Positions 1-58,259 are shown, counted from the stretch's first letter. The stretch: DNA of 64,000 bases from a virus (IMGVR_UViG_3300020045_003522:4362-68361); one strand, 5' to 3'. The notes: generated by a model from the sequence alone, not told the origin. Translations and numbers: made by a program.

Positions 1-1181
1 GACTTTTGCCGGCCAGCGTTGTTCGATGATGCACTGCCATCCCTTGAACTGGCTGCGCATTCTTGTGTCATTGTTAAATCAATTGTGCTCGCTCCGTTAC
101 CAACATCAACGATATTTGTAATCCCGTTACCAGTGGCAAAGCTTGTCCAAATATTGTAACCAGTGTTTAAAGCTCCAAGTCCTGAAGTCTGTGGACTAAC
201 ATAGTACCTCGTGCCTGACTGGTTGATTGTAGTGAGAAGCGTTGCCAACCTAGAAAGTAACGCTGTCTTTGGTGCTCCGCTCGATAGCGCGTCTACCTGT
301 TGTTTAGATTCGCGATAGTCGACAATATCAAGTGTCGCCTCTGCATTATCCGTGAATTGTGTCGCCTGAAGTGTTGCGTCTTTATTGAACTTTGCCGCGA
401 ATTGGAAGAAATTATACTCAGCGGTTGCCGGGTTGTAAACATGGTCGTTCCATATTCCTGAGTTGTGTGAATCAGAAGCACCCGTGTAATAATAACTACC
501 ACGCGCTGCTGGTGTTTCTTCACGCCATGCACTAAAGTCTCCGTTTGCCCAATATAATGATCCTCCAATTGTCTCTCCAAATGTGCCATCATTTGTACCA
601 TGATGCTGCCAAAACCCTATACCGTAGTAATTCGCCCAACCAGTTTGGAATGATGGCCCTGAAATCGGTATAACTGATGCTATCTGTGAGTATCGTGCTT
701 GTAGAATATTATAAGCCCCAATCGCTCCACCACTTAAACCGGTATAAGAAATTCTATTAGGATCATACTTTACTCCATCCGCTGTTAATTCTGTTAAGAT
801 ATCATCAAAATGCCCAGTATTTGGGTCTCCATCACCAACCGTATACTCACAAACGACTACAATGTGATCATAAGTTAAATCATCCCACGACCCATTATTG
901 AGGTAGTAATAAAGCCCTTCGCCTTCATTTACCCGGTTCGCCCAGGTGCGCATTCCGTAACCACCAAAAAAAACCATCAATGGTAAACTTCCCGCCGCCG
1001 CCTGGTCGTAACCCCTCGGTTTGTAAATGTAATATTCCCGTCCTGATTGGTAGTTACCACCACTTGCGAAAGATGGAGCGGATAGAGTCGTATTCCCAAA
1101 CGCACCACGATAAGAATTAACAAGTAACTGCCCGTTACAGGAAAGTGAAAATAAAAGAAGTACGTAAATTAATATCCGCAT
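1..1181 (-). CDS. Signal-peptide-bearing alpha/beta-hydrolase (esterase/peptidase, COG4099-like); runs off the window edge
   Basis: Absent from the ORF track; translated by hand from ATG 1181 and open to base 1. MRILIYVLLLFSLSCNG/Q leader, DPNRISYTGLSGGA nucleophile elbow, FWQHHGTND (Asp), SHNSGIW (His). TAATG overlap with the upstream gene. Confidence 0.8.
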   Translation of the reverse strand, partial: MRILIYVLLLFSLSCNGQLLVNSYRGAFGNTTLSAPSFASGGNYQSGREYYIYKPRGYDQAAAGSLPLMVFFGGYGMRTWANRVNEGEGLYYYLNNGSWDDLTYDHIVVVCEYTVGDGDPNTGHFDDILTELTADGVKYDPNRISYTGLSGGAIGAYNILQARYSQIASVIPISGPSFQTGWANYYGIGFWQHHGTNDGTFGETIGGSLYWANGDFSAWREETPAARGSYYYTGASDSHNSGIWNDHVYNPATAEYNFFQFAAKFNKDATLQATQFTDNAEATLDIVDYRESKQQVDALSSGAPKTALLSRLATLLTTINQSGTRYYVSPQTSGLGALNTGYNIWTSFATGNGITNIVDVGNGASTIDLTMTQECAASSRDGSASSNNAGRQK

Positions 1182-2221
1182 TAGTATCCGATTAAGGTTA
1201 CTTTAAGACCGGCTGCAGCAGTAGCGCCGTCAACCGAAACAATATCCACTGTTATCACCGAATCGTCAGATATCGCGGCATCTGAAATAACTACCGGCGT
1301 CGCCGCTGTTGTACTTGTCGTCTCTGTATTGTCAATAGTTAAGTTTGTGGAAAATATTGTAGTCCCGTTTTCCTTTACATTTATGGTTACCACTGTACCG
1401 GATGATTGAGCGGTTGTGAGCGATGCCCGAACGCCTGTCAAAGTCAAAGCGTAAGGCATTCTAAAAGTTACTTTTGCGGTTCCGGTCGTTAATGCTGTAA
1501 CCTCATCAGAAGCCGCTGCCATAAATGCTTTGTTAGCTGCCATTTGGCGAACTTCTCCGCTTGGAGTTTTCCAATACGGCAAATCATTAGCACTGTTGGA
1601 ATAAAATAAACCGCCGCCGGTCGGATTTCCTGAAGGGTTAGTTAAGGCTGTTTTAATGTAAACAACCCCAGCGCCGCTTCCATAAGAAGGAGTACCACCA
1701 ACCAAAGAAGTATTTGTTCGTGATGCTGTTAATCCACCATTAAGTTCTACAGAGTTTGGGTTTAATAGAACGACCCCGCTTACTCCACCAGCTCCTAAAT
1801 TCATTGCCCCTTGTGAGCTGACCACTAGAACTGCATCACTTGTAGAGTTAACCGCAGATAAGGTTTTTATAGCATCTGAATTGCTCGCGCTACCTAAAGT
1901 TAAAGCCGCTGTACTTGAAGAAAAGAACCCCGAAGCAACTGCGTTAGTCCCGTTAGACTTCATTAACTCATTGCTTGCTGCTGCGTTGGTTATGCCTCCA
2001 CCTGAATACTGAGGAATGTTTAAAGTCCCTGATGTGTACGTTGCCGCTCCGCTTGTTCCTGTTGTGGTTAAAGTGAAAGGTAATGCCCAAGTAGGTGGAG
2101 TAGAGCTTCCGTTACTTAAAGCAACTTGACCAGCCGTTCCGCCGTACGTTACATTTCCAAGCTGACCAAAGGAGTGAATTGAAATCAGTAGAAGAAATAA
2201 ATTGATTAATATTTTTTTCAT
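1181..2221 (-). CDS. Tail fibre-like protein with Sec signal peptide (module A)
   Basis: G/S/T-rich fibre motifs (LTTTGTSGAATYTSGTLNIPQY); C-terminal TTGTAKVTFRMPYALTLTGVRASL beta-sandwich common in phage fibres; leader MKKILINLFLLLISIHSFG/Q. Confidence 0.7.
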   Translation of the reverse strand: MKKILINLFLLLISIHSFGQLGNVTYGGTAGQVALSNGSSTPPTWALPFTLTTTGTSGAATYTSGTLNIPQYSGGGITNAAASNELMKSNGTNAVASGFFSSSTAALTLGSASNSDAIKTLSAVNSTSDAVLVVSSQGAMNLGAGGVSGVVLLNPNSVELNGGLTASRTNTSLVGGTPSYGSGAGVVYIKTALTNPSGNPTGGGLFYSNSANDLPYWKTPSGEVRQMAANKAFMAAASDEVTALTTGTAKVTFRMPYALTLTGVRASLTTAQSSGTVVTINVKENGTTIFSTNLTIDNTETTSTTAATPVVISDAAISDDSVITVDIVSVDGATAAAGLKVTLIGY

Positions 2222-2224
2222 TAT

Positions 2225-3727
2225 TTAAAGCCCTGCGGCGGTTAGTGCGTTGTGTAAAATTGTATAGTCCATTGTGGAAGCTTTGCCTATCTGTACAGAC
2301 TTGTAACCGAACCACCAATTATCTTGAAATGTTCCGGAGAGAACACGACCTCCAAATCCAGTAGGCTGATCCACTAATACTTGCGGGCCTGTGATTGTGT
2401 GTGGCGTACCAAACAAAACACCATTCTTAATGAATTGCATTTGATCACCAATTACCTGCATACCTATTCTGTCACCAACCGTGAAGTTAGCCGCAGCCGT
2501 TGTTATCTCGTCACCTGATTCTGTATTGAATCTTCCTACAATGTTTGATCCATCTCTTCTTAATGAAAATGCAGTTGTGCCATCGTCCGCACCAAATAAA
2601 TATCCGGGGTTATCCTCAAGGTCTGACGTGGTTAGATGAAGCATGACAAACATATCATCAACTTCAGCTTCCCTAAATGTTATTGCTGGATATATCCCTG
2701 TCAATGGCCGAGAAAAAACACTTGCCGCATACGTAACAGTCTCAGCCTCGAAAAATAAAGAAAGGTTTCCCATGGAATGTAAATAAGAGAAATCAATAGT
2801 CTGATCTCTCACATCACCAACCGGCCCTAACGCAAGAAAATCTAAATCCCAAATCAATGTATCTAATGACTGAGATAAAACTCTGAACTTTTCTTTTTTC
2901 GTCGAATCAATATCTTCAAAGAAACACGACGCTATTTGTGCGGCGACTTTCGGAAGTTTACGCGAATTTATTAACGCTCTTGAAAACATTTTTCCGGCTT
3001 CGATGCATCCGTCTGCATTCATGTGGTTCGCGTCATAAAAATATCCGGCTGCGTGAATGGCTTGATAATTAAAAGCATACCTCACTCTGTTGTTATTCTC
3101 AACAAGATCTTTAATCAATCTTTTAATATCTGATGTTCCAACCTGATTAGGAGTTGACAACGCCGGAGATACTACAAATACTCTTGATCCCGGAAACTCT
3201 GTTAGTATTGTTTCGTAATACTGTTCATGAAATGCAACCACGCTCGCAATAGGTTGATCTCTATCATTGATACCGATAGAAGAAATAATATCAATACCTG
3301 TCAAGTGTTGATCATGCATAAATGCTTTCACTACAGGTAAGTACTGTTCAAAGTATCCGCCATCCTCAACCCACTCTTCTGCTGTTGATCCGGCCACAGC
3401 CATATTCAAAATCATAGGCTTGAATCCAGTGGCTTCGTAGTAGTGTATACCAAACGCCGGGAAGATTGTTCCGACGGTAGCCCCCATTGCGTCTGACATA
3501 TCAGTATCGGTTATCTCAGTCACTTCCCGCGTGATTCTGTTAACCTGAAAGACTGTATTAGGATCAGGCTCAGGGCCAGCGGTTGCGTTAGGAGCGGCAA
3601 CTATAGAATCTCCAAAGCCGACAATCGCACGCTTGCCGTCACTCGTTACAAAGATTTGAAACTTCTCGTTTACCTGCCCATGCGCAAGGGCACTAGAAAG
3701 GAGTATTAATAAAATTATATTTTTCAT
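2225..3727 (-). CDS. SGNH/GDSL esterase domain protein with Sec signal peptide
   Basis: Block motifs GFGDSI, NMAVAGST, IGIND, DANH; leader MKNIILLILLSSALAHG/Q; beta-rich C-terminal half. Confidence 0.75.
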   Translation of the reverse strand: MKNIILLILLSSALAHGQVNEKFQIFVTSDGKRAIVGFGDSIVAAPNATAGPEPDPNTVFQVNRITREVTEITDTDMSDAMGATVGTIFPAFGIHYYEATGFKPMILNMAVAGSTAEEWVEDGGYFEQYLPVVKAFMHDQHLTGIDIISSIGINDRDQPIASVVAFHEQYYETILTEFPGSRVFVVSPALSTPNQVGTSDIKRLIKDLVENNNRVRYAFNYQAIHAAGYFYDANHMNADGCIEAGKMFSRALINSRKLPKVAAQIASCFFEDIDSTKKEKFRVLSQSLDTLIWDLDFLALGPVGDVRDQTIDFSYLHSMGNLSLFFEAETVTYAASVFSRPLTGIYPAITFREAEVDDMFVMLHLTTSDLEDNPGYLFGADDGTTAFSLRRDGSNIVGRFNTESGDEITTAAANFTVGDRIGMQVIGDQMQFIKNGVLFGTPHTITGPQVLVDQPTGFGGRVLSGTFQDNWWFGYKSVQIGKASTMDYTILHNALTAAGL

Positions 3728-5754
3728 CTTACCACTACCGTTTTAGCTGTCTCTTTAATCACTTCGTTTGTTCCAGCACTTGCCTGTACAGTTACAATTA
3801 AATTATTATTAAGGTTCATAGTAGCAGCTCCGGCACTATACGAAATCATATTATAAGCTGTCGAATTATTTGTTGAAAGCTTTACGTTACATTTCTGTGT
3901 TGCTGCACCTGTACGTATGATCTGGATTTCTAAGGTCCAATAATTAGTACCAGAAGAAAGAACAAAATTACCGCTATCAAATATTGTACTACCTTCAAAG
4001 TAAACTCGTATCCTTTTATCGTTAGCGCTACTTGTAAAAGTGCCAGATAATTTTGACTCTACAGATTCACCATCAACCACTAAAGTATTTGCTGGCACAT
4101 CGTAATTATATAAATCTGTTTCAGTTGTACCACTATTAGTGGTTTGTGAAGTGTTGGTATTTAGTACATTTTGAGCAATAGCCTGTACAGATGTATTACC
4201 ATATTGGTCAACAACAATATTTTTATAAGCTAATGCGCTCCCCGACACAAGAGATGGCATTTGTATATTACCAAGATAGTCTATGGTAAGCCTCGAAAGG
4301 TCAGCAAATCCAACACGAAAATATAACGACCCGGAATTGTTCGCGCTTATTGATAAACCATTTGGTGCATTACTGTATAACAACCCTGAGTTTGGTAGAT
4401 AGCCGTTGGCTGTAGCTTTTGTTCCAATGTAAGTTTGATAATCTGCGTCATTAATTCCGTATACAAATGATCCTGTAGCCGTACTAGTATTATCAGCAAT
4501 TAAGTAACTACCCGAAGATGATGATTTTGTAAGTGTTAAAGATGTTGTACTCATAGTTAAATCAGCACTTCCTGCCGCTGTGTTAGTTCCCGTGCCGACA
4601 AGTACTTGACCCGTCGAAACCGTTCCGCTAAGACCATCACCCCACTCAGGGATCAATCCTGCGCTAACCCTTAACACCTTACCAGCGGTGCTGATTGGCA
4701 ACCTCGCAGCAGCGCCACCTGTAGTACCATAAATTAAATCGCCCTCGGTAGTTATCGGGCTTTCAAAAGCGTCTGCGCCAACTCCACTAACAGTAATAAT
4801 TGGAGCGGTAGAAGATATATATAAAATCGTTCCTGTCTCACCGGGCGCTAGTACCGAAGCCCCCTCAGAAGTCACGCCGGTATCATCTACAAAATTAACA
4901 TCATCCGTTCCTTTATTAACCAATTCAATTTTTGTATCCAGAATAAGATTGTCAATGGTTAGATCAATTGGCGACGAGCTATCAAATATTATAACGTTGT
5001 TGTTGTCAGTCTGCACCGTTGCGCCATCCGCTGTTAATATTCTATAAACGTTCTCTACGTCCGAAGCTAACACAGGGCCACCACCGCCTCCTGAAATAGA
5101 ACTTACCGCCCTTCTTACTACTGACTTATCAGAGTTTTTTATAGCTAATACATATGCTGCAGTGTCGAGTGCCGGGAGAGTTCCGGGTAGTTTTATTTGA
5201 CCTGATCCACGGGTTAATGTTACGTCAGTTCCAACGCTCACGTTTCTATCGCCGTAAGTTGCCACCGTGCCTCCTGTGGTTGTTGTAACGTTACCTCCTG
5301 AAGTCTGTCCTAATCTTGTAGTCCCTGATTCTGCAACAAATCCAGACCCTGCGACAATATTAATATGACCTAAGTTGCCAATATCAATATGACCCATGTC
5401 AGTGATTTCTAACGTTGGGTTTGTTCCTGTTCCGTCAATTATAACGTTGTTACTTAATACAGAACCAGCGTCTAATACTTGTTGTAGTGTAGGGGTTGAG
5501 CCTGAACCACCACCAAAGCTAAAAACATGATCGTACCCTGAACCGTTATAAAAATCCCAGTGAGGTGTAGCAGCTTGTGCATTCCAAAAGAAGTCACCGT
5601 AATTTTGCCCGTGTCTTGTTGCCGAAGCTGAAATATGCGCCGCCGAGTCAGTTACCACACGGGTAAATACACTGCTAAAAGCCGCGCTACCAACCTGACC
5701 GAAAGAAGCAATTACGCTCGTTACAAATATTAAACTAAGAATTATTTTTTTCAT
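3724..5754 (-). CDS. Tail fibre-like protein with Sec signal peptide (module A)
   Basis: Gly linkers; PTLQQVLDAG and ITTEGDLIYG fibre motifs; shares an internal domain with 44722..47451; leader MKKIILSLIFVTSVIASFG/Q. Confidence 0.7.
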   Translation of the reverse strand: MKKIILSLIFVTSVIASFGQVGSAAFSSVFTRVVTDSAAHISASATRHGQNYGDFFWNAQAATPHWDFYNGSGYDHVFSFGGGSGSTPTLQQVLDAGSVLSNNVIIDGTGTNPTLEITDMGHIDIGNLGHINIVAGSGFVAESGTTRLGQTSGGNVTTTTGGTVATYGDRNVSVGTDVTLTRGSGQIKLPGTLPALDTAAYVLAIKNSDKSVVRRAVSSISGGGGGPVLASDVENVYRILTADGATVQTDNNNVIIFDSSSPIDLTIDNLILDTKIELVNKGTDDVNFVDDTGVTSEGASVLAPGETGTILYISSTAPIITVSGVGADAFESPITTEGDLIYGTTGGAAARLPISTAGKVLRVSAGLIPEWGDGLSGTVSTGQVLVGTGTNTAAGSADLTMSTTSLTLTKSSSSGSYLIADNTSTATGSFVYGINDADYQTYIGTKATANGYLPNSGLLYSNAPNGLSISANNSGSLYFRVGFADLSRLTIDYLGNIQMPSLVSGSALAYKNIVVDQYGNTSVQAIAQNVLNTNTSQTTNSGTTETDLYNYDVPANTLVVDGESVESKLSGTFTSSANDKRIRVYFEGSTIFDSGNFVLSSGTNYWTLEIQIIRTGAATQKCNVKLSTNNSTAYNMISYSAGAATMNLNNNLIVTVQASAGTNEVIKETAKTVVVR

Positions 5755-6188
5755 AACTCAGATTCTTTCTTTTTGAAAAACTTCCTTACCTTTTTAAATC
5801 CGAATATAAAGGCATCCCATACCACTCCTGACCCTACTAAGTACAAATCATTCCAACCAAGTTTTGCCTCCACTCCAAACAAAGGAGCAAGTGGATCAAC
5901 ACTTAAATTTCTAGCTCCTATCCAGAGTAGTAGAAAAATACAACCAAGCGAACCGATCCATGTTTCGTAATGAGTTTTAGCGTACATCTTTAAAGTAACA
6001 GGACTTTTTAAAATCATTCTCACGCCGTTAGCTAAAAGTGTTTTCGAGTTATCATCTAACCCATTACTTGCATTAATGTATTTTACAATTTCAGGTTCGT
6101 ACTCGCTGCCGTCTCCCTCTTGTTTTACTACACTAAATTCGGCCCAATTCCATAGAAACCAACCGAGTATGCTAATGAAGAAATTCAT
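5751..6188 (-). CDS. Membrane protein (about 3 TM, basic C-tail) inside the tail module
   Basis: Three hydrophobic segments and KKVRKFFKKK tail; positional counterpart of 47762..48157. Confidence 0.6.
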   Translation of the reverse strand: MNFFISILGWFLWNWAEFSVVKQEGDGSEYEPEIVKYINASNGLDDNSKTLLANGVRMILKSPVTLKMYAKTHYETWIGSLGCIFLLLWIGARNLSVDPLAPLFGVEAKLGWNDLYLVGSGVVWDAFIFGFKKVRKFFKKKESEL

Positions 6189-6192
6189 AATT

Positions 6193-6660
6193 TTATACGT
6201 AAGCGTTTTGAGATATATCTATTTTCCAGTTAGTCCCATCAAAAACAGCGTGACCTTTGAAGCTCCCAGTTCCGCTTGGCTCCCATTCTTTTGATCCTGT
6301 CGCCTCCCATCTTGAGTCATCCATTGTAACAGTTGACGGGAATGTTAGTATAGCAGCAACGTTAGAGATGTTCAAAACAAAATCAAATTCTAATGCCTCA
6401 GAGTCATTTGAGAACGCAATAGTTTTCGGAGTTGCAAAAGATGTTAATCCCCAGAAAGTTCTTTTCTGTTTTAACTCGAAATCGAAAGTTATTGTACTGC
6501 CAGTTGTTGCGGGTGTTACCACATCAAGCACAAGGCAAAAGCTATCGATCATGTTTACAAGCATGTTTCTTACTCGTAGTTTTGTATTAGCTCCTACTGC
6601 TGTTTCATCCCGTATTACGTTGGCCTCTGTTGTTAATTCGGCTTTAGTTTTTATACTCAT
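6193..6660 (-). CDS. Minor tail protein / fibre adaptor
   Basis: N-terminal VIRDETAVGANTKLRV shared with 47451..47762; position before the fibre genes. Confidence 0.55.
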   Translation of the reverse strand: MSIKTKAELTTEANVIRDETAVGANTKLRVRNMLVNMIDSFCLVLDVVTPATTGSTITFDFELKQKRTFWGLTSFATPKTIAFSNDSEALEFDFVLNISNVAAILTFPSTVTMDDSRWEATGSKEWEPSGTGSFKGHAVFDGTNWKIDISQNAYV

Positions 6661-16241: not shown

Positions 16242-16682
16242 CTATTTTGCTCTAAACAGTTTAGCGGCGATAGTCGCACTCATTGTGCCGGTGCCGGTCC
16301 ATGTTACCCTATAATAAGGAAACGGAGATCCTGCTAGTCGGTAGTGATAAGTGTTAGTTGCATCAGTTGCCGTAATGGTAGCGAGCGCGGTTTGTGTGTC
16401 AACCGTATTCATAGCTTTCCAGTTTGTGCCATCAATGCTACCCTGTAGAGTAATTGTACCGCCAACAGTTCCGCTAATCTTTGTCACTATAATCCAAATA
16501 GTGGTTGATGTTGCGGGAGCTGGACTGATTGCGTTTAGTGTTGATACATACGCAGTTGCTGTGTTTGTAACAGTATCAGTAGCGAATGAGTAAGGACTCA
16601 AAAAGCTATAAACCTGTGCCTTTGTTTCGATCGCTGAGAAGGCTACCAACCCAACGAATAAAAGTATAATTAACTTTTTCAT
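16242..16682 (-). CDS. Beta-sandwich capsid decoration-like protein with Sec signal peptide (module A)
   Basis: Leader MKKLIILLFVGLVAFSAIETKA/Q; ITLQGSIDGTNW and PFPYYRV motifs; two genes downstream of the capsid gene. Confidence 0.6.
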   Translation of the reverse strand: MKKLIILLFVGLVAFSAIETKAQVYSFLSPYSFATDTVTNTATAYVSTLNAISPAPATSTTIWIIVTKISGTVGGTITLQGSIDGTNWKAMNTVDTQTALATITATDATNTYHYRLAGSPFPYYRVTWTGTGTMSATIAAKLFRAK

Positions 16683-16685
16683 TTG

Positions 16686-16907
16686 TTATTCTTTGATTTT
16701 AACCCAGCCTCGTTCTACAAGCATGTCAGCAGTCTTTTTCGCAATCTCGAACTCATCACCATCTTTGTGATAAGGATCACCTTTTAAAGACACTACTGTA
16801 ACAGCGGTATCAATAACGGCATCTTTCGGAATTACAAACTCTGTTGCCTCTTGAACACCTTCACCGACTACGGTTACTTCTTGTTCTTCTTTTTTAGCTT
16901 TTCTCAT
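16686..16907 (-). CDS. Small head-associated protein (module A)
   Basis: Directly after the capsid gene; paralogue of 58265..58486. Confidence 0.6.
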   Translation of the reverse strand: MRKAKKEEQEVTVVGEGVQEATEFVIPKDAVIDTAVTVVSLKGDPYHKDGDEFEIAKKTADMLVERGWVKIKE

Positions 16908-21773: not shown

Positions 21774-21836
21774 TATTTGGTTATGGCTTTATCTGATCTG
21801 TGTACGATTCGCATTTTTGAACCTTTAAACCAAATT

Positions 21837-23937: not shown

Positions 23938-24219
23938 CTAAATAGTTATCTTTTTAATCTTATCCCCTTCAATTAAAAAAGCTTTGTTCTTTCTGATAAA
24001 CATGGTAGCCGGTTTAAAATACGTCTTTTCGCCTTGAATTACGTAGACATTGTAATACCAAAGTTTGCCTTTTCTAATGGCTGCCAGGGTCTTAAGTTTA
24101 GAAACGGCTTCCGCGTGATTTCTGGCTTCCATCCACATAACTCCTTTTTTGAAGTTTATTGTTTGGGCTGATGCCGTGAACGAAATCAGGGCCAGAATGA
24201 TGTAAATTAGTTTTTTCAT
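23938..24219 (-). CDS. Small exported protein
   Basis: Start moved to MKKLIYIILALISFTASA/Q at 24219. Confidence 0.55.
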   Translation of the reverse strand: MKKLIYIILALISFTASAQTINFKKGVMWMEARNHAEAVSKLKTLAAIRKGKLWYYNVYVIQGEKTYFKPATMFIRKNKAFLIEGDKIKKITI

Positions 24220-41940: not shown

Positions 41941-42287
41941 TTACTTTTGGTTTTAATCTTTATCTTCTTAATCCCGTTCTCTTTCATGTACCGGATAATA
42001 TCAACTTCGTTTTTTATCTGTACCTCCTTCAACCGTTTTTCAATGTATGATATTACATTTTCGCTTGAAAGAGATAATCTTAAATCTGATTGACCGTATT
42101 CAGTAACTAGAGGCAAAAGTGATTTAGAAAAATAAACACTCTCGCCATTCCACGGGATTAATGTGTAATTTGGATTAGGTAATAATGTGATGCTATCGCT
42201 ATAAAATACATGAGTCGAATCAAATGTAATCGTCTGCGCACTGGCAAAGCTCGAAATAAGGAAGAGTAAAAAGATTAGTTTTTTCAT
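41937..42287 (-). CDS. Small exported protein
   Basis: Leader MKKLIFLLFLISSFASA/Q. Confidence 0.6.
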   Translation of the reverse strand: MKKLIFLLFLISSFASAQTITFDSTHVFYSDSITLLPNPNYTLIPWNGESVYFSKSLLPLVTEYGQSDLRLSLSSENVISYIEKRLKEVQIKNEVDIIRYMKENGIKKIKIKTKSK

Positions 42288-44725
42288 TTTCGTATTTTAT
42301 TAGCCTGTTGATTTACCATCCAAACTCCCGTATTTATCCATTTAGGTACAAAATATTCCATCTTTAAAGCCTCCAAATTAGGTTGATCAAATCTTAGTTC
42401 ATACCGTCCTGTATAAGAATCTACAAATCCCTTAAAAACAGAATTTGAAAACTCGCCATTTGATGACTCGTACTTATTTGCTCCTACGAAGATAGAAATA
42501 TTTTTGCTTATTAAATGGTCATCTAATAGCCCCTTACTTGAGATAGTCACAGACTTAAAAGTACTATCGGATTTAATAACCTTTGAACGGTCTAATTTTA
42601 ATAATACGCTTTGCCCGTTTGTTAACTGAATTGATGGGTTTGTCAAAGTCAAATTACCGTTAGCGGTTATCTTTATTGTACTCCCATACTGTGGATTTGC
42701 TGAAGTTTTTGTATTTCCAGTGTAAACCCTAGCTATGATATTGTTAATAGTTCCACTTGTTATATACTCATCATGCGCGAAATCTACCTCTAAAGTATTT
42801 GGTAGTGTTCCAAGATTGTTAAACGTTGAACTTCCGACAACCTTAACCACTGATCCAGACTTGCCTTTAATATCCTGAATAAATCCTTTTCCTCTGTTGT
42901 CTGAAATCTCTGAGACTACATTTACATTCTCCCCTACTATCGTATTACTCACAGTGCCAGCCGTTGAAGTTGAATTATCTAAGCAAAACTGATAACAAAG
43001 AACATCAGTATTTTTAATTGTTAGTAAACTAGTGCTTTCCTCTAATGGACTTTGACCTTGACCGGAAGAAAATAAAGTAAATTCTTTGGAAGGTACTGAA
43101 AGGTTATCGATAAAAACATTTTTACTCTTAGTGAAAGCGAAAAACGTTCCTCCTCTTGTTCCTGTTAGATTTGATCCTGGTACATAATCATTGAATCTAT
43201 TCGCTAATATTCTGCTATTCGTTATTGTTACACTGTTACCACTTGCCGCGCCTTGATTCTGAATCATCACATTAGGATGTAATGTTGAATCAATATTGAA
43301 AGTACAATTATCAAAAACGAAATCAGTGCTATCTAAAAGATTTATAGTCTTGGTAAAAGTAACGTTTCTAAAAGTCATGTTCTTTTGTCCATGTGCATAG
43401 CGTTGATTATTAGCAGTCATGTTATTGATTGACCCGTAATTTATTGTAGTACTATGCCTTAGAAGTGTTAGTAAAGGTGAATTAATAGTGTCTATAATAG
43501 TTGGCATTGTGTTAGAAGCGTAGAAGTCATACTCTCCACTACCTGATGCGTTTATGTTTCTGTAGTAAGAAAATTGACCAGTTGATGGCCCGCGTCCTGA
43601 TGAGTATTGCCTCCAACTTGCTGAAGTATTATTGATCAAATTTAAAACTCCGTAACATTTTACGATGATTGAGTCATGCATGTAACCACCGGCTCCATAG
43701 TTTCCAGTGGTTTCTAAACTTGCAATAGCCCCTGCGACATAACCACCAGACTCAATCATGTTTAAATAATCGTTTATCGTTACAGTCTGTCCTCCTGCTA
43801 TACCTCGATTAAAAAATGAAAGCGAAACAACACCACGATAGAAAGTAACCCGCGTTAGATTAAGTTTACCCGATGCCATTGATAAGGCTATTTGTTGATT
43901 TATGTTCTCAAATGTTACATCGGTGAAATTACCAGTATAGTTAACCGGAATTGCTGAACCTGGAAAAGGAGTTGAGTAAAAAGAGTTAGTGTAGTTTGCT
44001 TTTATAATCCACGACTTTCCATAAGCTAAATAATCTTGTTCACTAATGCTTTCAGGGAATGAAGTTCCTACCCACACGTTTAAACCTTGTGCGTCCGGTG
44101 GTATTGAAGCTGATATATTGTTTACTGTTATTATAGACGTCAAAGAATCAACTGATACAATAGTATTAACTTCACCCAATACCGCGCGAGTCCATGCGTA
44201 CCAAAGTTTATTACCTACCTTCCAATCTGACCACTTACGAACTTGGCCGATGATCTGAATTTTATTCGGTTGTTTTAAAACGCATGCATAAGTTTCGAAG
44301 AGATTATTTTTTTGCGCTGTCTTAAATTTTATACCTTTTACTATGTGAGTATCACCATATCTAGGTTCTATAAATATAGTTTCAGGTTGGTTGTATTGAG
44401 GGACAAAAGGATAAAGTACTATCGTTGAATTTCTTCCATTCAAATTCAAATTCCCCTTTATTGAAGTACCTCCAATATAAACTTCTAAAGTTTTATTTTG
44501 AATTGAATAACTTCTATTTTCTAATATAGCTTTTAATGTGCTGTAATTCGTTTGCCTGATTACTTTTATCTCTTCAAAACTCTTTTCTGGAAATAGTTTT
44601 TCTAACTCACCATATACTAAACCATCCTGAATTTCTTCATTTCTTTTCCCATAGTTCATAATAACAGACCTTGAAATTTGACCATAACATGAAGTACACA
44701 ACAGGAAAATAAAAATAAACCTCAT
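42284..44725 (-). CDS. Beta-helix depolymerase/tailspike-like protein with signal peptide
   Basis: Leader MRFIFIFLLCTSCYG/Q; N/T/I-rich repeats (TFENIN, TFRNVTF, VFDNCTF); visibly AT-rich DNA. Confidence 0.55.
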   Translation of the reverse strand: MRFIFIFLLCTSCYGQISRSVIMNYGKRNEEIQDGLVYGELEKLFPEKSFEEIKVIRQTNYSTLKAILENRSYSIQNKTLEVYIGGTSIKGNLNLNGRNSTIVLYPFVPQYNQPETIFIEPRYGDTHIVKGIKFKTAQKNNLFETYACVLKQPNKIQIIGQVRKWSDWKVGNKLWYAWTRAVLGEVNTIVSVDSLTSIITVNNISASIPPDAQGLNVWVGTSFPESISEQDYLAYGKSWIIKANYTNSFYSTPFPGSAIPVNYTGNFTDVTFENINQQIALSMASGKLNLTRVTFYRGVVSLSFFNRGIAGGQTVTINDYLNMIESGGYVAGAIASLETTGNYGAGGYMHDSIIVKCYGVLNLINNTSASWRQYSSGRGPSTGQFSYYRNINASGSGEYDFYASNTMPTIIDTINSPLLTLLRHSTTINYGSINNMTANNQRYAHGQKNMTFRNVTFTKTINLLDSTDFVFDNCTFNIDSTLHPNVMIQNQGAASGNSVTITNSRILANRFNDYVPGSNLTGTRGGTFFAFTKSKNVFIDNLSVPSKEFTLFSSGQGQSPLEESTSLLTIKNTDVLCYQFCLDNSTSTAGTVSNTIVGENVNVVSEISDNRGKGFIQDIKGKSGSVVKVVGSSTFNNLGTLPNTLEVDFAHDEYITSGTINNIIARVYTGNTKTSANPQYGSTIKITANGNLTLTNPSIQLTNGQSVLLKLDRSKVIKSDSTFKSVTISSKGLLDDHLISKNISIFVGANKYESSNGEFSNSVFKGFVDSYTGRYELRFDQPNLEALKMEYFVPKWINTGVWMVNQQANKIRK

Positions 44726-47451
44726 AAACCGGATAACTTAATCCAGTTAGCTCCATTTGATTGGACTGATGTAGTGCCAATGGTTGCCATAATTAAAGTT
44801 GTTGGTGTTGCTGTTACATTTACAAAAGTCTGTGAAGATGTTGTTGCTAATGTGATTGTTCCAGCTCCACTATTAACAATATGATAAATACGTCCGGTTA
44901 TACCAGCTGCTGTTGGTAGAGTAACCTGGAACGTATTTGCTGTGCATTCAATTGTGTAGTCATTCACAGTGGCTGTATAGTTAGCCGTCTTTGCTACATA
45001 ACCTCCAGCAAAAGAACCTGCTGTTGTTAGTGTAGAATTTGGTGTTGCTGTAGCGAAACCACTCAAAGAAGCCGTAGGCACTGATAATATCCCGTAGTGC
45101 GTTCCTGTTACACTTGTTACAGTTGGGTTATAATTAATACCAGTTACGTTACCAAGCACAGAGGTATAAGTAGGAATAATGTCAAGAACTTTAACCGCTC
45201 CGCTTGCTGTTGAAGTCTGGTTAATAGTCCATATAAAATTACTATGTGACATTGTACCGGTTCCTGAAGATGGACTGAATGTCCCACCCCTATGCCCGAA
45301 TAGAGTTCTATCTCCTGATGTGCTTGTTATCGTTGCTGTAGCTCTTAATGCTGTTGCTGTACCTCCCGCATCTGGAGTTCTGTTATGGCTTATTACATAT
45401 TGATTTGATGCTAGTGTCGCTGATGCATATGATATATCGAAATAACCAAATGTAGTTGCCGAGTTAACCATAACCCCATCGCCACGAGCTGAGAATATTG
45501 TACCAACAGCACTATCTTCGATTCTCATCCCAAAACTTGCACTAGTTGTTGTTCCTGATCTGAAGTAAGCCGCTGTAGGATTACCACCTATTGAAGTTCC
45601 TAAAACCTTTAAGGCAATACTAGATACTGTAGAAAATCCTCCCGTTGCGTGAGTTGGTTTAATTACTAAGGCATTTAGTTCCTGAGTATTTGCTCCTGCT
45701 GTTACTGATGGGCTTATCTCAAAAGGTTCAACAATGTGTGAAACAGTTCCATCTCCTGTAATAGTTGGTGAGTGTATTTCATGTGAATCTAAATCTGATG
45801 CTGCTGTAAACGTTCCGTTATAATTAAGTCTATTTACTGCACTTGAAGTAATTGTAGTCGTTCCGGTTAATGTAGTCGTTCCTGTTGTGTTCCAAAAAGG
45901 AGCCGTACCAGTAATAGCCGAATTAAAGTTTGTCCATGATGGAGTTCCTAAAAATGTCAAAACTCCCGTTCCTGTTGTTGTTGTCGATGGGGCTACTCCT
46001 GCGCCTCCTCCAATTACCAAAGAGTTAGCTGCCAAAGCTGCTGAACTTGCCCACGTTGAACCACTTGAAAAATAAGGTATGCCTCCACTTGTCCCCGCAA
46101 CTGTTAAAGCTGGTGTAGTTGTCGCGTTTGCAACCGATATTAATCCTCCAGTAAATCCAACACTAGTAACCGTTCCACCTGTACCTGCCAAAGCTAAAGG
46201 CGCGGTAGTTGTTTCGTACTGAAGAACTAATGTAGATCCGGCTGCAATAGTGTTTGGAGTTGGTGCTGTGGCTGTTCCGCTAACTAAAGTAACCGTTCCT
46301 GATCCTATGTTGATGTAGGTTATAACACTCTCATCAGTCAAAGCATCAACTGTAATATTAAAAGTACCATTCAAATAAACCGTGTGAAGATTATCTGATT
46401 GTAAAGTAGATGTGTTCGTTGTCGCTGTTCTGGCAACGTTCAAGGCACTTACTAAATCAGTGTTTTCTAAAAGTTTACCTGATAGCGTTGTACCTGTTCC
46501 ATCATAGTAAGCAATCTCTCCGTCTGTACCTGAGTTTACGGTGCCTGTTCCGCCTCCACCTGATCCAATGGGAACCACCGGCCTCCATCCATGACTATTA
46601 ACACCATCATTAAACAACATTATAATTTCACTTGGTTGTAACGTTAAGTTACTCCCCCCAAGAAAAAATCTATTCTCAACACTTGAACTTCCGCTTTCAT
46701 CAACTAACGTTAAGGTATTCGTATCATCGTAATTTTGGATGATCCTTAACTGTGAACCTCCAAATTGTAGTCCGGTAATTTGATAGTTACCATTAGCTAC
46801 GAACCTGCATAACATGTTCCCATTGCTTGGACTATAATTATTTACATCTCCAGTTAATGCGCTTGCACTTATATTTGGGATTAATTCTTTTAATAAGAGT
46901 GAGTACATTTCAAACTGACCAGTAGATCCGTTAAACTTATCAGTTCCGGCAGTTCCAAAAATAACATCTCCATCAGGTTCAACTTTAAATATAGGATCAA
47001 TAGCACCTGTAGCAAATGAAAAATAATTACCATTAATGTCTATATCAACATCGGAAGTAATTACTGGGTCAACTGTTATAACGTCCTGAAGTCCTTGTGA
47101 AGCTCCGCCTGAACCTGTTCCCTCAAGTTGGTAATAGGCACCTCCGTTTGAATAGCTAAGTTTGTAAATGGTGTTAACATCTAACTCACTGCCAGCTAAA
47201 ACTTCCCACGAATCACCATCCCATGCGCGTATAGGAGCTGCTCCGATTGAGTTTATATTTATTGTTGCTGCGCCTGGGTTAGTGTTCCCAAACTTTACAT
47301 AAACAACTGAGTTATTGTATGAAGTTAGTGCGGTTACATTTGTTGTATAGGTGCCTGTTCCTGATGTTGGAACCCAACGATTAAACAAAGATTGAGAGAA
47401 TGAAGCGATTGAAACAACCGCAAATAATATAGATATGAGTATTTTTTTCAT
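44722..47451 (-). CDS. Long tail fibre-like protein with Sec signal peptide (module B)
   Basis: Leader MKKILISILFAVVSIASFS/Q; GTVTSVG..TTPALTV repeats; C-terminal KTANYTATVNDYTI..VTLPTAAG fibre domain. Confidence 0.7.
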   Translation of the reverse strand: MKKILISILFAVVSIASFSQSLFNRWVPTSGTGTYTTNVTALTSYNNSVVYVKFGNTNPGAATININSIGAAPIRAWDGDSWEVLAGSELDVNTIYKLSYSNGGAYYQLEGTGSGGASQGLQDVITVDPVITSDVDIDINGNYFSFATGAIDPIFKVEPDGDVIFGTAGTDKFNGSTGQFEMYSLLLKELIPNISASALTGDVNNYSPSNGNMLCRFVANGNYQITGLQFGGSQLRIIQNYDDTNTLTLVDESGSSSVENRFFLGGSNLTLQPSEIIMLFNDGVNSHGWRPVVPIGSGGGGTGTVNSGTDGEIAYYDGTGTTLSGKLLENTDLVSALNVARTATTNTSTLQSDNLHTVYLNGTFNITVDALTDESVITYINIGSGTVTLVSGTATAPTPNTIAAGSTLVLQYETTTAPLALAGTGGTVTSVGFTGGLISVANATTTPALTVAGTSGGIPYFSSGSTWASSAALAANSLVIGGGAGVAPSTTTTGTGVLTFLGTPSWTNFNSAITGTAPFWNTTGTTTLTGTTTITSSAVNRLNYNGTFTAASDLDSHEIHSPTITGDGTVSHIVEPFEISPSVTAGANTQELNALVIKPTHATGGFSTVSSIALKVLGTSIGGNPTAAYFRSGTTTSASFGMRIEDSAVGTIFSARGDGVMVNSATTFGYFDISYASATLASNQYVISHNRTPDAGGTATALRATATITSTSGDRTLFGHRGGTFSPSSGTGTMSHSNFIWTINQTSTASGAVKVLDIIPTYTSVLGNVTGINYNPTVTSVTGTHYGILSVPTASLSGFATATPNSTLTTAGSFAGGYVAKTANYTATVNDYTIECTANTFQVTLPTAAGITGRIYHIVNSGAGTITLATTSSQTFVNVTATPTTLIMATIGTTSVQSNGANWIKLSGL

Positions 47452-47762
47452 TATGGTTTGATTATAAAGTCTTCAAAATCTTCTGCCCCTGCTACTAATG
47501 CTACCATCCATGCTGCTGCCGGAACGTAATCAGCATCGCCCAAAGTACCATGATCATCTAATGCAATGTAAAGTGTCGGTGCATCTGATACCGGAAAATC
47601 CCCTCCATTGTCCGCAAAGTTCCAAGTCTTTAAAGTAAGCTTTGAATCTATAACATCGTTTAGTATGTTGTAAACACGAAGCTTTGTATTTGCACCTATG
47701 GCAGTTTCATCCCTGATAACCGCTGCCTGTGCCTTTAGTAGAGTATCCGATTTAGCTGCCAT
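47451..47762 (-). CDS. Minor tail protein / fibre adaptor (module B)
   Basis: N-terminal VIRDETAIGANTKLRV shared with 6193..6660; different C-terminus. Confidence 0.55.
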   Translation of the reverse strand: MAAKSDTLLKAQAAVIRDETAIGANTKLRVYNILNDVIDSKLTLKTWNFADNGGDFPVSDAPTLYIALDDHGTLGDADYVPAAAWMVALVAGAEDFEDFIIKP

Positions 47763-48157
47763 TATTTTGTAGGTGTTGGTTGGTCGGTTGTTCCGTTTGC
47801 TATATCTGTCTGGGTTGTTTTGTAATCTATAGCATTGTTTACCCTCTTATTTACCACTGAGAAAATCCTACTCGCTATGTCAGCACTCGAATACCCAACA
47901 AAAGCAAAAGCGATCTTTAAATAATTTTGTACTATAGGATTAAAATTTATTGCTTCATGGATAAAGAACATAAACATAATTATGGTAACAACCGAGATAC
48001 TATGCGAAACCCAGTCATCTAAAAGATATTCCTTTACACTGAATTTCACATTTGCCTTTTTTGCTTTATCCTGAATGCTTTTAATTTTCAAAAGCATCTG
48101 TAAAAGCATCCCTAAAAATGCTATGAAAAATAAAATTGCGTAGTCTACTGTTTCCAT
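47762..48157 (-). CDS. Membrane protein (about 3 TM) inside the tail module
   Basis: Hydrophobic segments; counterpart of 5751..6188. Confidence 0.6.
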   Translation of the reverse strand: METVDYAILFFIAFLGMLLQMLLKIKSIQDKAKKANVKFSVKEYLLDDWVSHSISVVTIIMFMFFIHEAINFNPIVQNYLKIAFAFVGYSSADIASRIFSVVNKRVNNAIDYKTTQTDIANGTTDQPTPTK

Positions 48158-57117: not shown

Positions 57118-57818
57118 ATCCCGAAAGTGTTTCGTTTAGGCTGCTCACCAAATTCATAAGCCAGATAATCATTGAAGTCTTGGAACGTTGAATCAAACGT
57201 GTCATCGAAAGTTCCTGAAGCAAAGTTTGTGTAATACAGATACCCATAAAGAGTATTGACCTGATTACATACGCCCCCTACTTTTTCGCTCCAATCATTC
57301 CACGCTCGGCAAATCAAAGTTCCAGGATCAAACGGAATATTGTTTTCGGTCTTTGGGGTCACAGTTCCATTGACGGTTTGTTGGAAAACATTATACTCAG
57401 TCCATCTGGAATAGATCAAAGCCTTTAAAGTCTTGACCATTCCATACCATCGGTAGTACTTTCCGTTAGCCAAATAGGTTGAGCCGTTCTTCAACAGTAA
57501 CCACCTGTTATTAGCTTCAATAAGTTCCCAATCAGAACCCTCCACAGGAACCGTTCCAGTCTGAACCGTTAACGCTTTCCATACATCATTGCCGTAAACA
57601 TATTGCTGATTGATAACAGTGGCTACAGTCGAAACCCACAAACCAGGCAGACCATTAAGCCCGGAAATAAAAGCATCGTAAAGGTTATCGCCCAAAACTT
57701 CACGCAAATACATTTCCTCTTCAGCATCAATAAAGTTCTGAAATTCTTCTGCCGCGCCTGTTGCCAGACTTGGAAGTCGATAAGGTAAAACGTTGAAGTC
57801 TTGAGCGGTAACGAACAT
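57114..57818 (-). CDS. Head-tail adaptor/connector (module B)
   Basis: Paralogue of 15529..16239. Confidence 0.55.
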   Translation of the reverse strand: MFVTAQDFNVLPYRLPSLATGAAEEFQNFIDAEEEMYLREVLGDNLYDAFISGLNGLPGLWVSTVATVINQQYVYGNDVWKALTVQTGTVPVEGSDWELIEANNRWLLLKNGSTYLANGKYYRWYGMVKTLKALIYSRWTEYNVFQQTVNGTVTPKTENNIPFDPGTLICRAWNDWSEKVGGVCNQVNTLYGYLYYTNFASGTFDDTFDSTFQDFNDYLAYEFGEQPKRNTFGI

Positions 57819-57821
57819 ATC

Positions 57822-58259
57822 TTATTTTGATCTAAATAGTTTAGCGGTAAAACTTGCACTCATCGTACCGGTACCGGTCCAGCTCACCCTATAGTAAGGC
57901 ATCGGGCTCCCTGAAATAATCCAGTGATAAGTATTACTTGCGTCCGTTGCTGTAATAGTAGCGAGTGCAGTAGCTGTATTAGGCGTGTTTAATGCCTTCC
58001 AGTTCGTGCCGTCAATACTGCCCTGCAATGTGAGTGTTCCGCCAACAGTTCCGCTTAACTTAGTAACCGCAACCCAAACGGTAGTCGTTACCGCTGGTGC
58101 AGCACTTACTGCATTACGAGTTGTAAGCGTTCCTACGCCTCCGTTAGTCACAGTGTCACTAGCCGCGTAAGGGCTTAGCGCATTCGTGAGGCTGTAAACT
58201 TGTGCGTTCGCTGAGAAGGCTACCAACCCAACGAATAAAAGTGTTATTAACTTTTTCAT
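57822..58259 (-). CDS. Beta-sandwich capsid decoration-like protein with Sec signal peptide (module B)
   Basis: Leader MKKLITLLFVGLVAFSANA/Q; paralogue of 16242..16682. Confidence 0.6.
   Translation of the reverse strand: MKKLITLLFVGLVAFSANAQVYSLTNALSPYAASDTVTNGGVGTLTTRNAVSAAPAVTTTVWVAVTKLSGTVGGTLTLQGSIDGTNWKALNTPNTATALATITATDASNTYHWIISGSPMPYYRVSWTGTGTMSASFTAKLFRSK

Follow-up and report, generated by a model that had tools for sequence, protein, structure and literature searches.

The window analysed here is a 64,000-nucleotide stretch of a viral contig (IMGVR_UViG_3300020045_003522, 4362-68361) carrying two virion modules, A and B. Translation of nine minus-strand ORFs reproduced exactly the starts and junctions listed in a preliminary description of this DNA; all nine open with a basic and hydrophobic leader that runs into a small-x-small motif followed by glutamine (Table 1). 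Three more cases share this anatomy, among them a 101-residue protein and A282. The ORF at the left edge runs on past the window, and its full product is 509 residues long. In the nine ORFs and the three further cases, a positive n-region precedes an uncharged hydrophobic core of ~8-15 residues. The leaders are 15-22 residues long, and the best 8-residue Kyte-Doolittle mean of their cores is 3.0-3.7. Each leader ORF starts at its first ATG, which lies 0-6 nt from the stop of the upstream gene or overlaps it by 1-4 nt. In agreement with the preliminary description, no such leader is present on the core proteins, namely TerS, TerL, portal, protease, capsid, neck, tube, TMP and the two large proteins of the baseplate region.

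Table 1. Leader-bearing genes of the window and the genes that frame them; a slash marks the predicted cleavage site.
Feature	Coordinates	Strand	Leader	Remarks
A282, leader gene (282 aa)	contig 3172-4020		...AICFG/Q	first gene outside the window on its left side
A509, esterase-like leader protein	3..1181	-	MRILIYVLLLFSLSCNG/Q	window holds first 393 codons of 509 aa
A346, leader protein with phage tail-fibre tip domain	1181..2221	-	MKKILINLFLLLISIHSFG/Q	junction ...HSFG/Q
A500, leader protein, SGNH/GDSL-like esterase	2225..3727	-	...LAHG/Q	
A676, leader-bearing mosaic fibre-like protein	3724..5754	-	...IASFG/Q	
Small membrane protein	5751..6188	-		hydrophobic N-terminus; directly upstream of first leader gene of module A
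Leaderless small adaptor-like protein, module A	6193..6660	-		
A146, leader-bearing jelly-roll protein, head module A	16242..16682	-	...ETKA/Q	
73-aa post-capsid ORF, module A	16686..16907	-		
Major capsid protein, module A	16910..18175	-		leaderless; PHROG 10, E 2e-16; synteny anchor
Further leader protein, 101 aa	23938..24243	-	MKQKTRSNMKKLIYIILALISFTASA/Q	junction ...FTASA/Q; early region, outside virion modules
B256, leaderless alpha/beta hydrolase	41170..41940	-		homolog of A282
B116, small leader protein	41937..42287	-	MKKLIFLLFLISSFASA/Q	junction ...FASA/Q
B813, leader-bearing right-handed beta-helix, tailspike/depolymerase-like	42284..44725	-	...SCYG/Q	
B909, leader-bearing mosaic fibre-like protein	44722..47451	-	...IASFS/Q	
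Leaderless adaptor-like protein, module B	47451..47762	-		
Membrane protein	47762..48157	-		upstream of module B leader cluster
B145, module B copy of the leader jelly-roll protein	57822..58259	-	...FSANA/Q	70% identical to A146
Major capsid protein, module B	58489..59739	-		72% identical to module A capsid protein

In order to judge how often such leaders arise by chance, we scored them with a home-made von Heijne-style heuristic (not SignalP). It flagged 11 of the 96 called ORFs on the contig. Shuffling the contig's own proteins gave 2 flagged sequences in 1980, and viral loci with GC>=0.44 gave 2 in 282 ORFs; none was flagged in two other Bacteroidota siphophages, the Leeuwenhoekiella phage Arctus_1 (65 ORFs) and the Bacteroides phage B40-8 (58 ORFs). 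By this heuristic, the leader frequency on the contig far exceeds both the chance level and that of the control phages. Leaders are missing from the structural modules of Arctus_1, snusmum9-1 and B40-8, and the trait is patchy across Bacteroidota phages. Within the window, the leader genes are packed translationally in late operons; because they overlap their neighbours or abut them within 0-6 nt, no independent expression is evident. A sigma-70 promoter and terminator scan around them, which does not model Bacteroidota promoters, gave no excess over shuffles.

For the leader gene of the head modules, one detail differs from the preliminary description: in module A, a 73-aa ORF lies between the capsid and beta-sandwich genes. 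The A146 family comprises 599 homologs and 1024 cluster representatives. Among members having a hydrophobic segment, 193 of 194 keep the small-Gln pair; Gln23 is invariant, position -1 is Ala in 171/193 and position -3 is A/S/V/T in most, while the hydrophobic core varies freely. This pattern in the aligned sequences indicates that the leader is under purifying selection as a signal, not as a sequence. About one in five representatives is longer (30/150, plus 8 more with an internal leader starting at Met). These are mostly in-frame fusions of a homolog of the 73-aa ORF, the leader and the jelly-roll, and in 18 fused examples the hydrophobic segment is internal, behind a charged domain of ~60-110 residues. 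By synteny, the position of the gene after the capsid gene is fixed in six related loci (L001-L006) and in Pan5; in every relative examined it sits between the capsid and neck genes, and its conservation is very high. The AF2 model of A146 is a jelly-roll (pLDDT 86), and A146 is 36% identical to Pan5 gp7, whose label 'cement protein' is a supplementary-table entry ('cryo-EM or AlphaFold2') and not a solved structure; we found no PDB entry for the Pan5 cement protein. Like the jelly-roll cement proteins of Bordetella phage BPP-1 (3J4U) and H. pylori phage KHP40 (7DOU) and, by annotation, Pan5 gp7, A146 is a small jelly-roll whose gene adjoins the capsid gene. It is thus small, beta-rich, capsid-adjacent and cement- or decoration-like, and its capsid binding is predicted, from the Pan5 annotation only.

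The tail modules carry the remaining late leader proteins. In A509, residues 134-180 weakly match the NCBIfam catalytic domain of extracellular PHA depolymerases (E 4e-6, far below cut-off), and A500 matches Pfam Lipase_GDSL at E 0.0057, likewise below cut-off. Over its C-terminal 108 residues, A346 shows 43-57% identity to the C-termini of proteins from Synechococcus, Rhodobacteraceae and Sphingomonas phages; one of these is annotated as a 'tail fiber protein', another as a 'virion structural protein', and several more are hypothetical. A346 also matches PHROG 27064 (E 1.8e-5). B813, modelled by AF2 from 14 homologs, forms a right-handed parallel beta-helix (pLDDT 67) whose top Foldseek PDB matches are phage tailspikes, namely LKA1 gp49 (1.8e-8), Klebsiella K64 ORF41, phi297 gp61 and K1 capsule lyase (E 1e-8 to 1e-6, probability 1.0, with low TM of ~0.2). 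B116 matched no family in Pfam, PHROG or NCBIfam. A676 shares its leader and first 60 mature residues with P0124 (64% identity), whose C-terminus differs, and its C-terminal 447 residues with the leaderless P0123 (51%); segments of B909 recur in L011_541, L009_789 and L011_216. Since such swapping of N-terminal and C-terminal modules is typical of fibres, we regard both proteins as fibre-like. Their nearest ESM Atlas clusters, which serve as leads only, are viral and fibre-like for A676 and PTL_trimer and fibre clusters for B909. The fibre and decoration character first proposed for the leader proteins is therefore supported by the B813 beta-helix, the A346 fibre-tip domain and the A146 jelly-roll with its Pan5 match.

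Close homologs of several of these proteins lack leaders. In the B813 family of 17 members, the query included, only 3 have a leader and 13 are leaderless. For A500, a leaderless homolog (L011 2279-3001) shares 51% identity across 233 aa. A282 and the leaderless B256 of module B align at 28% identity over 248 aa (E 8e-17), beginning just past the leader of A282. Together with the C-terminal module of A676, these pairs indicate that the proteins can function without export. Upstream of the module A leader genes, the membrane protein is 42% identical to one (L009 9684-10031) that likewise precedes a leader fibre, and small TM proteins also stand before the leader clusters of phages phi19:1 (gp100) and phi46:3 (gp78). 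The leaderless adaptor-like proteins of the two modules have their first 40 residues in common (60% identity) and diverge after that; phi10:1 gp90, the positional analog of the module A protein, is MS/MS structural. A single weak alignment (E 3.6e-4 among 16 sequences) suggests a link between adaptor and fibre N-terminus.

The main external evidence for a link between leaders and the virion is provided by cultured Cellulophaga phages. We found leaders on all eight of the proteins phi19:1 gp101-104 and phi10:1 gp91-94, seven of them with Gln at +1, and all eight are annotated 'structural protein, experimental MS/MS' (GenBank KC821607, KC821618), although MS/MS on CsCl-purified preparations may pick up co-purifying secreted proteins or vesicles. 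The neighbouring small membrane and lysis-region proteins carry no such annotation. As in the window, the genes lie after the baseplate genes and before lysis, carry the same type of leader and stand four to five in a row, with one of them encoding a pectate-lyase beta-helix; unlike in the window, their products have no detectable sequence homology to the window proteins, and the records are silent on leaders. Because leader proteins at the equivalent position are annotated as MS/MS structural, the earlier proposal that virion accessory proteins carry Sec leaders is supported and is more than a guess. At 44-49% identity, myovirus phi4:1 gp52 and crAss-like phi14:2 gp97 contain the pectate-lyase domain found in phi19:1 gp102; both proteins are leaderless and MS-verified and have longer, different N-terminal regions. 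In phage Nekkels_1, by contrast, the match to gp102 is confined to residues 1-132, and these N-terminal ~130 residues, with the leader, show 95% identity. Judged from these alignments, the N-terminal part of gp102 behaves like a particle-binding module.

Known tailspikes bind the particle through a cytoplasmic N-terminal domain and are not known to carry a signal peptide. The tailspike depolymerases (LKA1 gp49, the P22, Sf6 and HK620 tailspikes, Klebsiella capsule depolymerases) share the right-handed beta-helix modelled for B813, but B813 opens with a predicted cleavable leader. Morons are expressed from signals of their own and do not form part of the virion. From these (lambda Lom and Bor) and from the PBSX 'exported protein' XepA of B. 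subtilis (6I56), the window genes differ in being packed in an operon and in having equivalents in virion proteomes. SAR endolysins resemble the window proteins in their use of Sec before lysis, which is predicted for the latter, and are released on membrane depolarisation; their SAR domain is a weakly hydrophobic, Gly/Ala/Ser-rich TM segment that stays uncleaved. We rejected a SAR reading of the leaders, whose strongly hydrophobic cores are Leu/Ile/Phe-rich and followed by a conserved SPI site, and whose cargo is not muralytic. The Q-rule describes Sec/SPI substrates among cellular extracytoplasmic proteins of Bacteroidetes (Bochtler 2018, PMC5837995; mBio 2023, PMC10653852). Like the window leaders, these combine a short n-region of basic character with a hydrophobic core, small residues at -3 and -1 and Gln at +1; in the window, the carriers are instead phage late-operon proteins of tailspike, fibre or capsid-accessory character. 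Our literature search found no paper describing leader-bearing phage virion proteins as a system, and the preliminary description knew of none. The nearest earlier description is a 2023 note on Porphyromonas gingivalis phages, in which Q-rule signal peptides were predicted on five genes of unknown function and read as marking envelope modifiers (Matrishin 2023, PMC10367356). That note already saw Bacteroidota phages using the host Sec route with phage-encoded Q-rule proteins; unlike the present case, it did not connect them with virion proteins, with fibre or tailspike folds, with a conserved family in the head module or with proteomics.

At the level of sequence, the leaders have every feature of Bacteroidota Sec/SPI Q-rule substrates, conserved over hundreds of homologs. 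We put at about even the chances that they are genuine Sec/SPI Q-rule pre-sequences on late-operon virion accessories, which are exported and docked at lysis. The accessories would be tailspike- or fibre-like proteins that bind receptors or cleave glycans, encoded where the tail module ends, together with the capsid-adjacent jelly-roll. We infer the steps of translocation, cleavage and pyroglutamate formation, as well as when and where docking occurs, as follows. The pre-proteins would be made late in infection, translocated by Sec and cut at small-x-small/Gln, where the new N-terminal Gln could cyclise to pyroglutamate. The mature proteins would fold in the periplasm and would meet the head-tail particle, assembled in the cytoplasm, only once holin, endolysin and spanin merge the compartments. 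Docking would proceed through the conserved mature N-terminal modules, possibly onto the small leaderless adaptor-like proteins already on the tail, and surplus protein would remain free as a diffusible enzyme. We know of no mechanism that adds fibres to tailed phages after lysis.

It is possible, if rather unlikely, that export takes place but the proteins do not become part of the particle. They would then act late as secreted enzymes (receptor-destroying esterases, lyases and beta-helix depolymerases), binding proteins or fibre-like decoys that strip or mask host surface glycans ahead of lysis and while it proceeds; progeny would then not be trapped on debris or on infected cells. Several leader proteins are enzymes or enzyme-like, Pan5 carries a leader-bearing heparin lyase at the equivalent position, and Matrishin 2023 took Q-rule phage proteins to modify the host envelope. 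Leaderless and leader-bearing forms also interchange freely, as expected if only exit from the cell were needed. Against pure secretion stand the MS/MS annotations of eight leader proteins in two phages, which adjacent non-structural proteins do not share, and the N-terminal modules, whose conservation and exchange follow the pattern of virion-anchored fibres. The core position of the highly conserved jelly-roll gene between capsid and neck argues in the same direction; our scan, which does not model Bacteroidota promoters, also showed no separate promoter or terminator.

We consider it quite improbable that the leader remains uncleaved or is used only in part, either intact in the particle as a hydrophobic plug or membrane-active tip, on a fraction of each protein that would stay cytoplasmic and be incorporated there, or as an inner-membrane tether marking an assembly site. 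The internal segment of the 18 fused jelly-roll proteins does resemble a signal-anchor more than an N-terminal signal, every tail cluster has a small membrane protein in front of it, and large, fast-folding trimers are poor post-translational Sec substrates. However, positions -3, -1 and +1 are far better conserved than the core, which fits a peptidase site and not a protein or lipid contact, and leaders this short with a mean Kyte-Doolittle value of about 3 or more are typical of cleaved signals and not of SAR or anchor segments.

Display on the infected-cell surface or on OMVs, put forward in the preliminary description, found no support; such display as lipoproteins or T9SS cargo, serving as decoys or superinfection blocks, is very improbable. 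No T9SS C-terminal domain (Por_Secre_tail/TIGR04183-type) was found in any leader protein at Pfam E<=0.01 or NCBIfam E<=0.1, profiles that a divergent domain could escape. Inspection by eye gave no clear lipobox (Cys at +1). Cys is absent from the vicinity of the site in seven of the nine ORFs; the two others, A509 (LSC-NG/Q) and B813 (CTSC-YG/Q), have Cys two to four residues before Gln and are ambiguous, and some neighbouring phage proteins elsewhere are lipoprotein-like (e.g. L009 14422-14997). Expression from late operons would, moreover, leave little time for exclusion functions. Hardly credible at all is an annotation artefact with true starts downstream of untranslated leaders, since, although A282 has a Met directly after its cleavage site, eight window leader genes have none at codons 2-60 and the only such Met of B813 is codon 23, each start is coupled to the stop of the preceding gene, and the leaders stay open across hundreds of diverged homologs.

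With export and docking at lysis as the preferred reading, part of the particles of these two related Bacteroidota phages may mature outside the cytoplasm. Tentatively, and with more doubt than confidence, we extend this reading to a two-compartment assembly spanning lineages of Bacteroidota tailed phages, in which a cytoplasmic head-tail core would receive, only in the short time following holin permeabilisation and through small adaptors already on the tail, tailspikes, fibres and a capsid cement protein; these would have passed through Sec, undergone processing by SPI and glutaminyl cyclase and reached their fold in the periplasm. If this route is real, the infectious virion would be completed during lysis.

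We translated the nine ORFs credited in the preliminary description with a leader (a basic-hydrophobic N-terminus, a small-x-small site and Gln at +1, the Bacteroidota Q-rule Sec/SPI type), and all nine were reproduced with their claimed junctions. Three further cases were counted: a 101-aa ORF, a 282-aa alpha/beta hydrolase, and the full length of ORF 3..1181, which encodes the beginning of a 509-aa protein. Leaders are missing from the core head, neck, tube and tape measure proteins, as had been stated, and from the baseplate-region proteins. A home-made heuristic (not SignalP) required K/R in the n-region, an 8-residue uncharged core with a mean Kyte-Doolittle value of at least 1.9, small residues at -3 and -1, and a site at residues 14–34. 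By this measure Gln+1 leaders occur in 11 of the contig's 96 ORFs, compared with 2/1980 shuffled versions of its proteins, 2/282 ORFs of viral loci with GC of at least 0.44, and none in Leeuwenhoekiella phage Arctus_1 (0/65) or Bacteroides phage B40-8 (0/58). Judged from their sequences, the leaders are very probably real Sec/SPI signals. In the 282-aa hydrolase a Met directly follows the predicted cleavage site (..CFG/QM..), and a second, leaderless product by internal start is conceivable. A promoter and terminator scan, in which Bacteroidota promoters were not modelled, gave no excess over shuffles.

The genes lie on a single contig of 68,361 bp, of which the window covers bases 4362–68361. 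PHROG matches identify two related HK97-type siphophage late operons (modules A and B) on the minus strand, with genes for TerS, TerL, portal, protease, capsid, neck, tube, chaperones and tape measure. The capsid proteins of the two modules are 72% identical and the jelly-roll proteins encoded after the capsid gene 70%. The contig comprises a complete phage genome and, in addition, a diverged second late operon; because relatives are typically 35–41-kb contigs, it may be a tandem arrangement or a chimera co-assembled from two strains. By capsid protein the closest cultured phages are Leeuwenhoekiella, Flavobacterium and Cellulophaga siphophages (Flavobacteriia), all at 32% identity or less. 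In the place of module A's VanY peptidase, module B encodes a DUF5675 protein, a candidate alternative endolysin. Several related phages have a CheY-like receiver-domain gene (Pfam Response_reg) in the lysis cassette, immediately upstream of the VanY-type endolysin.

Positions of the features discussed (L-numbers denote related viral loci)
Feature	Sequence	Position	Strand	Remark
Module A	window	22394 leftwards, past window edge	minus	
Module B	window	63742 to 38705	minus	
Early/replication region	window	between modules A and B		primase-helicase and C5 methylase
Leader ORF, 101 aa	window	23938-24243		
Leader-bearing alpha/beta hydrolase, 282 aa	contig	3172-4020		just left of window
Small post-capsid ORF, module A	window	16686-16907		
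Jelly-roll ORF, module A	window	16242-16682		
Small membrane protein	window	5751-6188		
Small membrane protein	window	47762-48157		
Small membrane protein	L009	9684-10031		
Small membrane protein	phi19:1	gp100		
Small membrane protein	phi46:3	gp78		
DUF5675 protein	window	39821-40231		module B lysis region; Pfam E 9e-22; PHROG 1501
CheY-like gene	contig	1851-2186		left of window
CheY-like gene	L009	16763-17155		
CheY-like gene	L014	9621-10004		
Leader protein N-terminus	phi19:1	gp101		MKKIFSILILLSCFYINA/Q
Leader protein N-terminus	phi19:1	gp102		MKKTIYILSILLLTISGVSA/Q
Leader protein N-terminus	phi19:1	gp103		MKQTISIVLFFILSLGLNA/Q
Leader protein N-terminus	phi19:1	gp104		MRNIVLILLFFNISFSFG/K
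Leader genes	Pan5 (L008, ON968456)	5945-6346, 20965-22086, 44154-44495		
Tandem jelly-roll paralogs	L067	10001-10441, 10477-10902		leader-bearing
Extended capsid ORF	L001	8253-9980		
Extended capsid ORF	L004	8164-9750		

The leader observation extends well past this contig. In Cellulophaga phage phi19:1, gp101–104 follow the baseplate genes, and the record annotates all four as structural proteins from experimental MS/MS proteomics; phi10:1 gp91–94 likewise combine leaders with MS/MS-based structural annotation. The preliminary interpretation is partly supported: MS/MS structural annotation in related cultured phages backs the proposal that virion accessory proteins carry Sec leaders. Export, cleavage and the assembly step are what we infer. 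The main alternative is that the leader proteins are secreted, never become particle-bound, and co-purify with virions. One of the four, gp102, is a pectate lyase whose catalytic part is 44–49% identical in phi4:1 gp52 (from a myovirus) and phi14:2 gp97 (from a crAss-like phage), both MS-verified and leaderless, with different and longer N-terminal regions. Phage Nekkels_1 has a counterpart, at 95% identity, of the leader-containing first ~130 residues of gp102, and the match is confined to residues 1–132, which is the behaviour of a particle-binding module. Runs of three to five leader genes occur in phi46:3, phi19:3 and Ingeline_1, and four consecutive Gln+1 leader genes on another, uncultured contig. 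In uncultured viral loci of low GC, anchored on a VanY endolysin, the final large gene ahead of lysis often encodes a Gln+1 leader protein of 660–814 aa. The trait is patchy among the phages examined: the structural genes of Arctus_1, Flavobacterium phage snusmum9-1 and Bacteroides phage B40-8 are without leaders. In the "cyanophage" Pan5, Q-rule leaders of the Bacteroidota type are present on three proteins, namely the cement protein, a heparin lyase I family member and gp64, and the Pseudanabaena host given for this phage may need re-examining; a literature search did not find a cryo-EM paper on it.

The mature parts of the tail-region leader proteins (designated by module and length in residues) resemble phage fibres, tailspikes and enzymes. 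The B813 model is a predicted right-handed beta-helix, and its top PDB matches are phage tailspikes and capsule depolymerases. The C-terminal domain of A346 shares 43–57% identity with C-terminal regions of phage proteins, of which two carry the annotation tail fibre or virion structural protein. A676 and B909 are mosaics: A676 combines a leader and first 60 mature residues shared with one protein and a C-terminal part of 447 residues shared with another, which is leaderless. In the ESM Atlas the clusters nearest to both are viral and fibre-like, with every score below 0.9, so that these are leads only. Weak matches make A500 SGNH-like and A509 esterase-like. Pfam, PHROGs and NCBIfam gave almost no matches to the nine leader proteins, a PDB sequence search none to A676, B909 or B813, and tblastn of B909 against cultured phages none; a 428-aa baseplate-region protein, searched as a single sequence or two-sequence alignment, had no relative in IMG/VR. 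We lean towards the tail-region leader proteins being virion-associated.

Relatives of these proteins occur without the leader, which counts against export being strictly required. In the B813 family 13 of 17 members, the query counted, are leaderless and otherwise collinear; leaderless relatives of the SGNH esterase and the A676 C-terminal module (51% identity) lie together on one small contig; and the alpha/beta hydrolase of module B is leaderless and its module A homolog leader-bearing. The existence of leaderless homologs indicates that the leader is an add-on, gained and lost, and the proteins function outside the cell with or without it.

Conservation of the leader was traced in the jelly-roll family. 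The 146-aa module A protein has 599 homologs in a 90%-clustered collection, and a profile search returned 1024 cluster representatives. Of the 120 homologs listed, nearly all open with MKK, then a hydrophobic stretch, then A/Q, apart from a few ORFs truncated at the N-terminus and two in which the upstream small ORF is fused on. The junction Gln is invariant in a 53-sequence alignment. Among 207 members with sufficient upstream sequence, 194 have the hydrophobic segment, followed in 193 by a small residue and Gln; 171 have Ala at -1, and A/S/V/T predominate at -3. Of the other 13, most are ORFs truncated at the N-terminus or the second domains of tandem forms. Because -3, -1 and Gln are conserved while the hydrophobic core varies freely, the pattern is the signature of a signal peptidase site rather than of a protein–protein contact, and by this measure the leaders are under selection. 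A lesser alternative is that leaders stay uncleaved or are partly retained. About one-fifth of the family representatives are longer, mostly in-frame fusions (P0138, P0111 and P0079, for example) of the small post-capsid protein (motif DPYHK..GW.K), hydrophobic segment, A/Q and jelly-roll, in which the now internal segment resembles a signal-anchor; other long forms are tandem two-domain proteins. In module A the two corresponding ORFs share a frame with only TAA CAA between them; their module B counterparts do not.

The position of the jelly-roll gene is constant in every relative examined: capsid, optional small ORF, leader protein, 233–238-aa neck protein. The protein is possibly a capsid accessory. 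A PDB sequence search with the A1 profile gave spurious repeats only. Against genome contigs the jelly-roll profile found only five phage-like contigs, within MAGs of discordant taxonomy (Calothrix, Chlamydiae, Woesearchaeota, Flammeovirgaceae). One locus, L067, has two tandem leader-bearing paralogs after the capsid gene. In L001 and L004 the capsid ORF is called with an N-terminal extension of ~100–150 residues and a hydrophobic, leader-like start, which may be genuine or come from a mis-called start (cf. Matrishin 2023 on capsid "signal peptides").

In several unrelated phages a small membrane protein gene, separate from the lysis cassette, precedes the leader cluster. In module A, L009, phi19:1, phi19:3 and phi46:3 nothing lies between it and the first leader gene; in module B an adaptor-like gene (small, leaderless) alone intervenes. 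This adaptor-like gene adjoins the membrane protein gene, and its positional analog, phi10:1 gp90, is MS-structural. In L014 the membrane protein gene precedes a leaderless 880-aa fibre, for which no homology to the 789-aa leader fibre of L009 was found. Between the 108-aa adaptor and the N-terminus of a conventional fibre on a related contig there was a single weak alignment (E 3.6e-4 in a 16-sequence set). We speculate that a small adaptor plus a leader fibre equals one conventional leaderless fibre, split in two.

In the textbook view, tailed-phage assembly is cytoplasmic throughout. Since heads and tails assemble there, the simplest reconciliation is that exported leader proteins would fold in the periplasm and dock onto particles as holin lesions merge the compartments; surplus protein would stay free as a diffusible enzyme. 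Possible reasons for export, by our own inference, are that lyase folding needs Ca2+ or an oxidising environment, that pyroglutamate protects N-termini (PMC10653852), or that the enzymes act early on the cell's own glycans. Surface display, also raised in the preliminary description, is a lesser alternative: no T9SS C-terminal domain was found with Pfam or NCBIfam, and no clear lipobox by eye. Wrongly called start codons fare worst, as the start of every leader gene is the first ATG in its ORF, 0–6 nt from or overlapping the upstream stop, and eight of the nine lack another Met in the first 60 codons (B813 has Met23).

The Q-rule is an established feature of cellular proteins (PMC5837995, PMC10653852). 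In Porphyromonas phages, Matrishin 2023 (PMC10367356) reported Q-rule signal peptides on five genes of unknown function, interpreted as envelope modifiers; a rumen-phage paper mentions in passing signal peptides only in its Bacteroides phages, and a DGR study states that phage DGR targets have none. In agreement with the earlier impression of novelty, full-text searches found no leader-bearing fibres, tailspikes or cement proteins described as a system, a provisional result as subscription journals lay mostly outside their scope. Tailspikes, decoration proteins and Q-rule secretion are of kinds already known, and we consider it rather unlikely that the pattern reflects a truly new two-compartment assembly route, with the head–tail core cytoplasmic and exported accessories joined to it at lysis. 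Both phi19:1 and phi10:1 are in culture together with their Cellulophaga hosts, so that the claim can be tested directly. Should Sec and signal peptidase I indeed handle the capsid-stabilising and receptor-binding proteins in a widespread group of Bacteroidota phages, pipelines that exclude "structural" proteins by signal peptides would mislabel the host-range determinants of these phages, and their recombinant tailspikes and depolymerases would be better made leaderless or in the periplasm. The Q-rule could also mark the host phylum of uncultured phages, with the cyanobacterial host of Pan5 already in doubt. Progeny infectivity would then rely on the host's secretion machinery, its signal peptidase and possibly its glutaminyl cyclase, each of which would be new both as a host-dependency factor and as a point of defence.
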